Source of the DNA: a virus
Lineage: Duplodnaviria; Heunggongvirae; Uroviricota; Caudoviricetes
Strand: one strand, 5' to 3'
IMG/VR virus record: IMGVR_UViG_2548876943_000023
DNA length: 13,384 nt
Both the position numbers and the translations under genes were made by a program. The notes under the pieces were generated by a model, which had not been told where the DNA came from, searched no databases, and saw only the letters and a program-made list of their open reading frames with translations. Shown here in pieces: positions 1 to 13,159 of this stretch (the stretch's first letter is position 1; each line of letters begins with the position of its first letter).

Positions 1-200
1 AGTTTGCTCCTGCCATAACGTGAAGAAGCAATGACCTGGTGGTCCGTGACTTCCCTACGCTGGCATTATCCAGATCAGGTAATACGGGTATTTCTTACTA
101 ATTACTTTTACCAGTTGATAATAAATAAGTTTTTAAGAACGCATAAATTAAAAGCCTCAGAACTGACCACACAACTGACCACACATTTTGTTGAAGCTCT

Positions 201-230: not shown

Positions 231-1069
231 GGGAAATTTGCTGGTGGTTTTGCTTAACCGTTATCATTTTTCGGCTATCCGTCATGAAGCTGGTGGATGA
301 TCACGGATAACCAGGCATCCACAGCGCCTTAAAAAGCTGAACCCGACAAACATTTCTGCTTATCGGGTCCGATCGCTCTTTCTACTCGTGGCAGATGAGT
401 TTATTGGGAGAGGCGGAAACATTGTATCAGGCTATCCCCTTTCTGTGCTGATTTGCATAGTTGTATATAGCTGTGCGTCCACCAGACACGCAGGAATGGA
501 GTTTGTGAGGAACTATAAATCCTGCGCAAATTTTCCCGGCCCACTCAAATTGAGTTTTCCGAAAATATCAACGGCTTAGGCCAAAGACCGAAAACGGGCT
601 TTGTAAAAAATTAACCTAATACGGTCGCTTTAACCTACGGTAATCGTTCTGCTTCGATGTGTGTCCCCTCTGCGGCCATCATGACCATGCCATAACAAAA
701 ACCCCATATTCGTGGTTTTTCTGTGTCGGGGCTATTCTGCTGTTGCCGTGCTCGTGGATATTCTCCGGTATGCGGCTCCCCATATCGACATCAGGCCCAC
801 CAGCGTGAAGCGTTTTTCATTTTTCGCGGGTATAAAAAATCGATGGGGCTGGCAGTCCGGAAGACGTCAGGGTACAGAGATTTGACCCGCCCCTCCCTGT
901 GCATAAGCACAATAAGTAACCGAAGGCGGAATTCCGCCCTCGGTACTCACATATGAGAAACGATATTTCTTCCACCGATACCCTTTATTTGGGTATCGCG
1001 AGTAAGCCCCAAAATCTGGGTGTTACTCTTACTACCCAAACTACGGGTAGTTTCCGTAGTTTCATGGTC

Positions 1070-1089
1070 GAGTTGCAGATCTGCAACTC
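1070..1089. repeat. 20-bp perfect palindrome GAGTTGCAGATCTGCAACTC centred on AGATCT
   Basis: Exact 10+10 inverted repeat seen in sequence. Nearby are a CGATACCC-tttattt-GGGTATCG hairpin (976-998) and tandem GTAGTTTC x2 (1047-1063). Function unknown. Confidence 0.6.
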
Positions 1090-1220
1090 ACCCACCAGCG
1101 CAAGCAGAGCCACTAAATGATACGATATGAAGTGATACAAATCAGTAAACCACTTCAATTTTAAAAGACGCTACTCAACACAGTAAAGCGCCTTTTGTTA
1201 TTGTTTATATGCTTTCGAAA

Positions 1221-1260
1221 ACACAAATAAAAAGCACCAGTATGGTGCTTTGTGCTTTTA
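1221..1260. terminator. Bidirectional rho-independent terminator, mainly serving the minus-strand gene 1275-1637
   Basis: Stem AAGCACC (1232-1238), loop agtat, stem GGTGCTT (1244-1250). On the minus strand it is followed by TTTATTTGTGT; on the plus strand by TGTGCTTTT. It lies 25 bp past the stop of the 1275-1637 ORF. Confidence 0.6.
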
Positions 1261-1274
1261 ACGAGTCCAAATAC

Positions 1275-1637
1275 CTAGTACTCAGGAAGATTTTCTAAAT
1301 TATCCTTAGATGTACCATTGGCTCTAGTTGTAATGTAATCAATGTTGTTAACACGGTCTTTAACCACTTTTTGACCCTTCTTCCACTTACCGTCATCACC
1401 TATGAAAATGGTGTAAAACGTATAACCACTATCGATCTTATTCACTACCCACTGCCGTGTTTCTGATACCCCTCCCCCAACAGTATCCCCCTTATCAACA
1501 TGCACATACACATGGGTAATGTGAGTGTGCTTGTCGTTATATCGGACTTTAGAAATAAGGTAATCAGCCCATTTATCAATCATATTCCACCATAAGTTTG
1601 AACAGGAAAAGTCCTGCAATACTCTTATAAACAACAA
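1275..1637 (-). CDS. Hypothetical AT-rich cargo protein, His-rich motif HTHITHVYVHVDKGD; unknown function
   Basis: ORF in the six-frame track. The listed start is TTG at 1637 (upstream GGTAGGAAG). An alternative ATG at 1583 (MIDKWADYL..., upstream GGTGG) would give 101 aa. Visibly AT-rich compared with the adjacent terL. Sits between the terL stop and a terminator. No family recognised. Confidence 0.5.
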   Translation of the reverse strand: MLFIRVLQDFSCSNLWWNMIDKWADYLISKVRYNDKHTHITHVYVHVDKGDTVGGGVSETRQWVVNKIDSGYTFYTIFIGDDGKWKKGQKVVKDRVNNIDYITTRANGTSKDNLENLPEY

Positions 1638-11916: not shown

Positions 11917-12237
11917 TTATCCCCGATTTGAATCAGTATTCGCTTTCTTTATGGCATTTAATGCATCTGCGGCATTTTCAATGGTGCACCGTAACGAAAT
12001 ATCAAACTGCCCAAGCATTGCCAGTAACAAACCGATATTACCCATATCAATGCGCATAGCCTTTTCGTCATAGTCCTCATTTTCTGACGCATGCCACATC
12101 AGGCTACCAATTGACGCAATACCCATTGATATATTGTCAGTAGCCCCATCCGCAGCGGAATAAACCTTTTTAGCAATATCATGCTCACAGTTAAAATGCG
12201 GATTAATCAGGTACTGGTAATTTGACATATCAGGCAT
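11917..12237 (-). CDS. Hypothetical protein (106 aa)
   Basis: ATG at 12237 with an AGGGGGTG Shine-Dalgarno; 6 bp before the next ORF. No family recognised. Confidence 0.55.
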   Translation of the reverse strand: MPDMSNYQYLINPHFNCEHDIAKKVYSAADGATDNISMGIASIGSLMWHASENEDYDEKAMRIDMGNIGLLLAMLGQFDISLRCTIENAADALNAIKKANTDSNRG

Positions 12238-12433
12238 GGCACACCCCCTGACGAATACGGGCGGCGAATACCATCACGCAGCCAGCCGGGGATTGCTGGC
12301 GTGCTTCCTGTTCGCTGGTGGCCACGATGTGAATCACGCGCGGTTGTGCCGTGCTCAGGGCGATAAAACGCCAGATGAATTTATTCAGGTTGTGCGAGTC
12401 CCGCCCTTGCGGGTGTGTGGTATGATTTAACAT
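12230..12433 (-). CDS. Possible small protein (67 aa), first gene of the minus-strand early operon
   Basis: ATG at 12433 with a GAGGT Shine-Dalgarno; overlaps the next gene's start by 8 nt. It is the C-terminal part of a long non-protein-like ORF in the track, so it is uncertain. Confidence 0.3.
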   Translation of the reverse strand: MLNHTTHPQGRDSHNLNKFIWRFIALSTAQPRVIHIVATSEQEARQQSPAGCVMVFAARIRQGVCHA

Positions 12434-12529
12434 AGCTACCTCGATACTTCTGCTATCGTTGGTGGTTAGAAGCCCGGTTAGTGTTAGCGCACTGCCGGGT
12501 TTCGTCGTTTCTGCACCTTGCATCAACAA

Positions 12530-12584
12530 GGTGTTAAACACCAATTTAAGCCTAGGTGTTAAACACGTCAAGTGTTGAACACTT
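12530..12584. promoter_or_regulatory. Three palindromic operator-like sites in a divergent promoter region
   Basis: GGTGTTAAACACC (12530-12542), GTGTTAAACAC (12556-12566) and AAGTGTTGAACACTT (12570-12584). A promoter-like TTGAAC-N17-CATACT overlaps site 3. The region lies between the minus-strand operon start (12433) and the plus-strand small ORF (12633). Confidence 0.55.
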
Positions 12585-12632
12585 ATTTTTTTTCCTGCAT
12601 ACTGCATTTGTTTTTTGTAAGGAGTACACAAC

Positions 12633-12812
12633 ATGGCGACAAAAGCAGTAAACGCAAAATCACAAACAGTTGCGGCAAGGGTTCCGCATGAAGTTATGAA
12701 CAATGTTGAGGCGGTAAAAATGCCTGGTGAAAGTACAGGGCAGTTTGTAACAGCAGCATTAAAGCGAGAAGTTGAATACCGCCAGCGTCGCAAGGCCAAA
12801 GAGCAGGAGTAA
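12633..12812 (+). CDS. Small ribbon-helix-helix-like DNA-binding protein (59 aa), candidate repressor
   Basis: Not in the ORF track (under 60 aa). Strong Shine-Dalgarno AAGGAG 8 nt before ATG. Translation MATKAVNAKSQTVAARVPHEVMNNVEAVKMPGESTGQFVTAALKREVEYRQRRKAKEQE fits a strand-helix-G-helix RHH pattern. Confidence 0.55.
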   Translation: MATKAVNAKSQTVAARVPHEVMNNVEAVKMPGESTGQFVTAALKREVEYRQRRKAKEQE

Positions 12813-12869
12813 CCATCACCAGCGCCGTGGTGCGGTGAACTGTGGCGCACAGGGTTACAGGTATCTACG

Positions 12870-13049
12870 ATGACTGACAAATCATTAAAGAAATTATCCT
12901 CATCCAAGAAAAAACAACGCAAAAATGCGGTAAACGAACATGAACCGGAGAGATTCGCACCATGTGCGTTTATCCTTGAGAAGTACCTTAAAGAGTATTC
13001 TAGGAAAATACGCTCATTGCAGGCATGGCAGCGAATCGAGCCAGACTGA
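12870..13049 (+). CDS. Possible small Lys-rich protein (59 aa)
   Basis: ATG at 12870 with a weak AGGT Shine-Dalgarno. MTDKSLKKLSSSKKKQRKNAVNEHEPERFAPCAFILEKYLKEYSRKIRSLQAWQRIEPD. Uncertain. Confidence 0.3.
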   Translation: MTDKSLKKLSSSKKKQRKNAVNEHEPERFAPCAFILEKYLKEYSRKIRSLQAWQRIEPD

Positions 13050-13113
13050 TAGCATTGCCCACTAGCCGACAACCTGGTATTCTGGATATGCTCAAGTTTA
13101 GTGTTATGCCACT

Positions 13114-13141
13114 GGCGACCGCCCCCGGTCGCCTTTGTTTT
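13114..13141 (+). terminator. Rho-independent terminator ending the plus-strand small-ORF transcript
   Basis: GGCGACC-gccccc-GGTCGCC followed by TTTGTTTT. Confidence 0.7.
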
Positions 13142-13159
13142 ATGTGTCATAGCTCCCCC

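Follow-up and report, generated by a model that had tools for sequence, protein, structure and literature searches.

The hairpin module and the element that carries it

The window analysed here, a stretch of 13,384 nucleotides held in IMG/VR as virus record IMGVR_UViG_2548876943_000023 (Caudoviricetes), is a piece of Escherichia coli chromosome whose first letter falls at the thiM start codon. Within its first ~1.27 kb lies a row of palindromes (960–1100) which very probably represents the core (972/1000–1099) of a mobile, satellite-specific, non-coding module of ~200 bp, placed between the last late gene and cos inside a satellite of the capsid-forming phage-inducible chromosomal island (cf-PICI) type.

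Open reading frames (ORFs) of the window with Pfam matches were all on the minus strand and corresponded to TerL, P27-type TerS, HNH, connector, portal, prohead protease, capsid, D5-type primase and DUF3892 proteins. The integrase gene lies beyond the window end and is annotated by RefSeq, next to rcnR, in the near-identical islands L006 and L007. With capsid, protease, portal, connector, HNH, TerS, TerL, a replication gene and an integrase present, and tail and lysis genes absent, the element is, as judged by gene content, a cf-PICI, that is, a phage satellite. In running capsid, protease, portal, connectors, hnh, terS and terL, with a primase in addition, the gene order agrees with published cf-PICIs of Proteobacteria (prototype EcCIEDL933; bioRxiv 10.1101/2022.09.08.507074).

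The module and its right-hand neighbours comprise the following features (window coordinates).

898–1099, no strand: satellite-specific hairpin-rich module with a universal core at ~1006–1099; most copies begin at 972 or 898
919–944, minus strand: GC-rich hairpin followed by a U-rich tail, terminator-like (terminator scan)
976–998, no strand: hairpin CGATACCC-N7-GGGTATCG with 8-bp arms and a 7-nt loop (repeat analysis)
1000–1028, no strand: hairpin GAGTAA..CCCA..TGGG..TTACTC (folding and variant comparison)
1038–1062, no strand: hairpin AAACTACGG / CCGTAGTTT, which includes the tandem 9-mers (GTAGTTTC x2); one 9-nt unit is absent in the L004 and L011 types
1070–1089, no strand: perfect 20-bp palindrome GAGTTGCAGATCTGCAACTC (repeat analysis)
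1231–1251, no strand: intrinsic terminator after the DUF3892 gene, stem AAAGCACCA/TGGTGCTTT (terminator scan)
1275–1637, minus strand: DUF3892 gene, which closes the late operon in this variant (Pfam, alignment)

Most of the repeat structure listed by the first-pass annotation was recovered. The perfect palindrome at 1070–1089 is present as described, where ~0.01 such palindromes would be expected by chance per 13.4 kb; its only differences among variants are an outer base and those at the centre (G to A, C to T), and in L188 it is the only part of the whole module to have been kept. The tandem repeat at 1047–1063 consists of two copies of GTAGTTTC (1047–1054 and 1056–1063) and is accompanied by an inverted third copy (1038–1045). 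The hairpin at 976–998 also exists, although the 16-bp arms ascribed to it are in fact 8-bp arms, or 16 paired bases. No further copy of any of the module palindromes was found within the window. The hairpins at 919–944 and 1000–1028, the Chi octamer at 1092–1099 and the terminator at 1231–1251 are additions to that annotation. The suspected clustering of palindromes is real: the folding energy of segment 915–1100 was −84.6 kcal/mol (z = −8.0) for the minus strand and −75.3 kcal/mol (z = −7.7) for the plus strand, and none of 200 shuffled sequences folded as well, so that a clustering giving a z of about −8 on either strand cannot be attributed to chance.

Unrelated perfect or near-perfect hairpins stand in for 976–998 in L013 and L104; the hairpin just right of 1099 is kept in variants whose sequence there is wholly different; and the counterpart of 919–944 lies on the opposite side of the module in other variants. 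A GC-rich stem-loop with a U tract, as expected of an intrinsic terminator, was found at 944–919 (minus strand) and 1231–1251 (both strands), and no U tract follows the hairpins at 976–998, 1000–1028, 1038–1062 and 1070–1089.

Island boundary and composition of the left flank

The first-pass annotation had treated the first ~1.27 kb as a single flank with no convincing ORF. The lack of genes was upheld, in that nearly all related genomes are free of RefSeq annotation there and the short ORFs present have no Pfam match, but the stretch proved to be composite, consisting of the thiM leader (1–95), an attP arm (96–311), a rare mosaic insert (312–676), the cos region (~783–897), the hairpin module (898–1099) and a variant-specific spacer with a terminator (1100–1274). 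Features of its host-proximal part are as follows.

1–95, minus strand: thiM leader with the 3' part of the thiM thiamine pyrophosphate (TPP) riboswitch; host DNA and the sole part of the window common to K-12
82–95, no strand: att core, attL copy, ATACGGGTATTTCT, the true island boundary; the same 14–15 nt stand at the integrase end of island L007 (21106–21120)
161–184, plus strand: tandem AACTGACCACAC x2 in the attP arm, part of a 68-nt block with a second, directly oriented copy near attR in L007 (20954–21021; 88% identity)

It had further been suggested that 960–1100 is the island boundary, carrying recombinase or host-factor (att) sites. Homology with several genomes does stop near 1089–1106, which taken alone would resemble a junction. 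That break, however, is a mosaic joint inside the element, and the integration sites and integrases that accompany the module are of at least five different kinds. Alignment to the island-free allele of K-12, which the annotation had proposed as a check, covered window positions 1–95 only (99% identity), with homology restarting at L007 21106–21120, the site of the second ATACGGGTATTTCT copy; the terminal direct repeat is ATACGGGTATTTCT, and nothing from 960–1100 recurs at the other end. Since the K-12 match ends at 95 and ATACGGGTATTTCT is present at both island ends, the boundary falls at 95/96 rather than at 960–1100, and the insertion point of the satellite, as placed by alignment, is within the thiM TPP riboswitch. 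We therefore regard the boundary reading as refuted. In strain B1W1 an island of 99% identity occupies another site, clpS/cspD, and has another integrase; its match to the window begins at 783, which implies that 783–1275 moves with the satellite independently of the integrase.

Positions 96–311 accompany the thiM-type integrase, and islands with other integrases have different doublets at the same place (AACTACACC, TGCAATACA); the AACTGACCACAC doublet probably represents integrase arm-type sites. The insert at 312–676 is rare: only two complete E. coli genomes cover at least 80% of a 305–690 query, the best match being strain CH4784 (100% coverage, 99% identity). It is also present in locus L001, pieces of it resemble other satellites and plasmids at ~82–88%, and it contains a terminator-like hairpin on the minus strand (370–339).

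The TPP riboswitch, as recognised by Rfam, is intact in K-12 and spans the junction, and no TPP match was obtained in the window or in the island strain L007. Its 5' half and promoter have been displaced by ~15 kb and stand beside the integrase (window 1–95; L003 2337–2433; L007 21106–21120), so that thiMD is severed from its usual control. At the other end of the window, a minus-strand ORF of 306 amino acids (aa) without a Pfam family (12230–13150) belongs to the regulatory or early part of the island.

Distribution of the module among satellites

Relatives of 898–1100 were found in 707 of 5,426 complete E. coli genomes, at a median of one place per genome (maximum six), as well as in three plasmid records, and none was found among 50,697 phage records. 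A scan of a species-representative genome collection with a 21-base pattern returned only two chance matches, other genera not being reached. A palindrome-only scan of viral contigs was also tried; most of its extra matches were a phage KilA-N gene with GAGTTGCAGATTTGCAACTC, and we discarded these as coincidence, only 21 nt being shared. This gene (L097 ~551–571 and ~80 other viral contigs) agrees with the palindrome at 19 of 20 bases, or at 20 of 21 when one flanking base is included, encodes the same ELQICNS and has no other similarity to the module.

Variant alignments revealed a sharply bounded block with unrelated sequence past both borders, present in at least four otherwise different types of E. 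coli satellite. These include P27-type cf-PICIs (two subtypes), satellites that lack a terminase and carry a ClpP-capsid fusion, others that combine a lambda-like capsid and a decoration protein with TerS, and a PerC-type island, with integration at thiM/rcnR, clpS/cspD, phoQ, yejO/narP or inside a prophage gpA gene. The module keeps the same position throughout, following the last late gene at the end distal to the integrase, and has a single orientation with respect to the late operon. Three alternatives occur to its left, namely a P27-type cos at a fixed distance of 178 nt (38 loci), a second conserved block, and a prophage gpA junction without cos (40 loci); on this comparison the module is therefore not bound to one cos, terminase, replicase or integrase.

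In most satellite types the last late gene, which adjoins the module, is a conserved one encoding a 93-aa protein, and in the window DUF3892 stands in that place. The 93-aa protein is 66–81% identical between types, has a basic C-terminus and belongs to no Pfam family. Its gene is located at L007 6795–7076, L014 5236–5517, L012 5412–5693 and L011 5317–5592, and more than 900 relatives exist in the protein collection, the 120 closest ones listed being all at least 84% identical.

The ClpP-capsid-fusion satellites without terminase abut a lambda-like prophage gpA gene that lacks its N-terminus (L009 7743–9001; L014 3740–5000; 40 viral-contig loci), and such a satellite appears to be integrated inside the terminase gene of its helper. 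In a few islands two module copies stand ~435 bp apart (L029 911–1505; also L021, L046 and L066). Between the copies of the L029 pair is an AT-rich stretch surrounded by GCGGGTTAT iterons, three of them direct and three inverted, an arrangement that looks like a replication origin.

A rival reading is that the module has no function of its own. It could be a recombination joint that is kept alike by frequent exchange among co-resident satellites and marks the border between the conserved late operon and the variable accessory, att-proximal region. Both borders are indeed sharp mosaic joints with many left and right partners, the tandem duplications fit unequal exchange, some satellites have accessory genes (Abi, an ATPase) immediately beyond the module and a Chi site is present at its inner edge. 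Such an origin would leave unexplained the dense row of palindromes (z = −8) and the replacement of one hairpin by unrelated hairpins, and exchange recurring many times within ~100 bp on each side is not ordinarily expected unless selection acts. We consider this explanation unlikely.

Packaging site and Chi sites

The DNA immediately to the left of the module resembles a phage packaging site.

815–897, minus strand: satellite cos region, 82–95% identical to the genome termini of SfV, SfII, SfI, ST64B and phiP27
845–854, minus strand: predicted 10-nt cohesive end TGCCAGCCCC, aligned with the phiP27 cos-site CGCCCGCCCC
1092–1099, minus strand: Chi GCTGGTGG, the first Chi in active orientation for RecBCD entering the right cos end
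240, 289, 797, 1092, 2098, 4985, 6219, 6471, 7474, 9215, 10111, 10794 and 12314: Chi positions in the window

Matches to 815–897 fall at the record ends of SfV, SfII, SfI and ST64B, while phiP27 annotates a 10-nt 'cos-site' within the match and the SfI record terminates at the position equivalent to window 845. Given this homology to phage termini, we take 815–897 to be the satellite cos, with a predicted cohesive end at 845–854 that is one base off the phage versions (TGCCAGCCCC here, TGCCCGCCCC in SfV/SfII, CGCCCGCCCC in phiP27). The HNH, P27-type TerS and TerL of the HNH-dependent P27/HK97-type cos phages have matching counterparts encoded by the island. Gene order differs, being HNH, cos and terS in these phages as opposed to terL, DUF3892, hairpin block, cos and att in the satellite, where the module stands in for the 3' end of the HNH gene. 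Phage homology ceases at window 897; 960–1100 has no phage counterpart and is not part of the phage-type cos. With cos so placed, 960–1100 would sit 45–250 bp inside the end that would be packaged last.

The second conserved non-coding block ('type B': GATATGGGGATCCCC ... CCGGAATTTTTTTCCGG ... CAGGCTGGTGGGC) stands left of the module in phoQ-type and yejO-type satellites (L012 4700–4970; L013 4700–4900; partly window 775–812, inverted). It is palindrome-rich, holds a Chi site and may be a different cos; a comparison of the 'type B' left flank with phages gave no match. The lambda cosN 12-mer was seen near the module in three loci only.

Chi octamers are enriched in the window as a whole, with 13 in 13.4 kb compared to 0.46 expected (a 28-fold excess); likewise, L007 has 13 in the 15 kb of its island, compared to a single one in 12 kb of flanking host DNA. 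Eleven of the 13 are oriented so as to be active for RecBCD arriving from the nearer cos end, the switch in orientation comes about halfway along the element and is independent of gene direction, and the polarity is weaker in the B1W1 island. The exact octamer at 1092–1099, which is in the active orientation ~240 bp inside the predicted right cos end, is present in about half of the module variants. Island-wide enrichment of this kind may protect cos-ended linear DNA from RecBCD, and the Chi at 1092–1099 would be a part of it.

Candidate functions of the module

The best explanation available to us, at a probability of roughly 0.35, combines the anatomy described above with a role as a 3'-end element on the minus strand. 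Its mechanistic part, that the module acts at the level of nucleic acid at the minus-strand 3' end of the late operon, is tentative. The module would be transcribed as the 3' untranslated end of the late morphogenesis and packaging operon, with the transcript finishing at the GC-rich hairpin and U-rich tail at 944–919. The row of hairpins would act as a stop for late transcription and for 3' exonucleases, shielding from late read-through cos, attP and int in the excised circle, and thiMD when the island is integrated, and could possibly leave a stable RNA derived from the 3' end.

A number of observations, among them the fold z and the unrelated hairpins that stand in for 976–998 (both given above), are consistent with such an element. 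A minus-strand model with six helices leaves 93% of cells paired across 46 distinct variants. The stop codon of the last late gene and the start of the module are, in most variants, separated by 36–120 nt that contain no minus-strand terminator. Within hairpin 976–998, one pair reads CG, UG and UA in different variants (minus-strand reading), and another changes from AU to CG; compensatory changes of this sort are confined to this hairpin and the terminator-like helix. A shuffle control was surpassed, though by sequences that are close relatives of one another. Common one-sided changes give a minus-strand G.U at five pairs and A.C at one, a weak lean.

Other observations weigh against the same interpretation. 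The lean towards the minus strand is weak when pairs are counted (11 G.U versus 7 A.C), and the L011 type, the variant that diverges most, has a disrupted hairpin 1000–1028. Helices 1–4, which form the core, are near-invariant, so that covariation is uninformative there (RNAalifold covariation term −0.46 kcal/mol), and polymorphic positions are no rarer in stems (13 of 54) than in loops (13 of 39). The promoter scan yielded a single weak promoter-like site (1187–1158, minus strand), below chance expectation. In the window, a good terminator at 1231–1251 separates the operon from the module, and the 3'-end model is therefore weaker for this variant. Finally, real terminators drift in sequence, as does the variable hairpin right of 1099, whereas the core is conserved in sequence, which hints at sequence-specific recognition that a 3'-end role leaves unexplained.

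A structured non-coding RNA at 960–1100, one of the readings offered by the first-pass annotation, is a tentative possibility. The covariance-model search recommended there found no Rfam family: against Rfam 15, no match in the whole window reached the gathering score, and at E values of up to 10 segment 700–1300 gave only chance-level matches (E ≥ 2). Scans for transfer RNA (tRNA) and transfer-messenger RNA returned nothing, and complementarity between the module and the rest of the island was below chance.

Conservation of the core sequence itself (92–100% identity, compared to 66–81% for the neighbouring 93-aa protein) is accommodated if the module consists of one or more double-stranded DNA sites bound by a host factor, a helper-phage protein or the adjacent 93-aa protein. 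The 20-bp palindrome would then be a dimer operator and the three CGTAGTTT copies iteron-like sites, with the module working in packaging, replication or end protection. This would agree with the retention in L188 of the palindrome and ~10 nt on each side, beside the att arms, with an extra inverted pair of AACTACG motifs in L013, with the location of the module here 45–250 bp inside the last-packaged end, and with the two module copies that flank an iteron-type origin in some islands. However, four different dyads would call for several proteins, none of them has a second copy in the window, and the centre of the palindrome, including its GATC, is unconserved. Moreover, the module accompanies different terminases, replicases and integrases, and 40 loci have no cos nearby. 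On balance, we regard a protein-bound site as a doubtful alternative.

A further rival is a coding function on the plus strand.

953–1120, plus strand: candidate ORF of 55 aa, considered as a rival explanation only

The module would in this case encode a small protein with the conserved core SKPQNLGVTLTTQTTGSFRSFMVELQICNS. The frame is open in 45 of 46 variants, an in-frame ATG is available in two unrelated left contexts, indels in the module measure 9, 6 and 3 nt (multiples of three), no change within the palindrome or at 1090 alters the amino acid, and the ratio of non-synonymous to synonymous polymorphism (pN/pS) is ~0.4 against the most divergent variant. The antisense frame, which shares its third positions, nevertheless has the same pN/pS of ~0.4 and the same period-3 signal, and two further frames are open across the core. 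Synonymous and non-synonymous changes in the core stand at ~10:18 where ~7:21 would be expected, and synonymous sites are much more conserved than in neighbouring genes. The ORF lacks a Shine-Dalgarno sequence, has no start codon in the second module copies and is left uncalled by RefSeq. No Pfam match was obtained, tblastn against phages gave nothing, and a search with the back-translated ORF recovered only relatives at the DNA level (at least 73% identity). A small protein thus appears improbable.

A sigma-54 promoter, a Xer/dif site, a tRNA-like 3' end (ACCCACCA) and FNR/CRP-type or LacI-type operators were considered and dropped without a supporting test. Taken together, our order of likelihood runs from an RNA element at the 3' end, through a protein-bound DNA site and a recombination joint, to a small protein.

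Relation to known systems and significance

Bacterial 3' untranslated region (3'-UTR) hairpin arrays, intrinsic terminators and small RNAs (sRNAs) derived from 3'-UTRs occupy the same place as the module, directly after the last gene of an operon, and hairpin arrays likewise consist of a series of stable hairpins ending in a GC-rich stem and U-rich tail on the operon strand. A precedent from a satellite is SviR, an sRNA of PLE, an element resembling phage-inducible chromosomal islands (bioRxiv 10.1101/2022.04.08.487710). Unlike these elements, the module is known from sequence alone, is conserved far beyond usual terminators and has no Rfam match. Imperfect palindromes of 100–200 bp in non-coding DNA are also typical of repetitive extragenic palindromes and bacterial interspersed mosaic elements (REP/BIME), enterobacterial repetitive intergenic consensus sequences or intergenic repeat units (ERIC/IRU) and miniature inverted-repeat transposable elements (MITEs). 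The module differs from REP, ERIC and MITE sequences in that it is not dispersed, every inspected copy being at a satellite end in a fixed position; it is missing from the thiM-rcnR spacer of K-12, and no target duplications were seen.

For cf-PICIs, cos-type packaging is stated in one report (10.1101/2025.02.11.637232). The searchable text of the cf-PICI papers neither gives the position of cos nor mentions a non-coding block, and the block is likewise not mentioned in the parts of the PICI cos papers that are open to search. The block is, in addition, present in satellites that are not capsid-forming in the sense of the cf-PICI descriptions. Within the libraries and literature searched it matches nothing described, and its function is so far an inference. 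Tentatively, it may be a previously undescribed functional element of several E. coli satellite families, either a structured RNA made from the late operon's end or a DNA site bound by a protein, needed by the satellite life cycle. Roles for such an element could include, for example, control of late, int or helper expression, or the processing or protection of the DNA end that is packaged last and injected first.

If functional, the block would add to the published, gene-centred descriptions a cis-element or RNA that is common among E. coli satellites and not covered there, and it would provide a simple sequence marker for the detection of such satellites. The analysis also places, by homology, the cos of a capsid-forming PICI. 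The side observations may matter equally: this island family parts the thiM TPP riboswitch from thiMD, and a density of about one Chi per kb, mostly pointing towards the cos ends, suggests that satellites without a RecBCD inhibitor shield their linear DNA with Chi.

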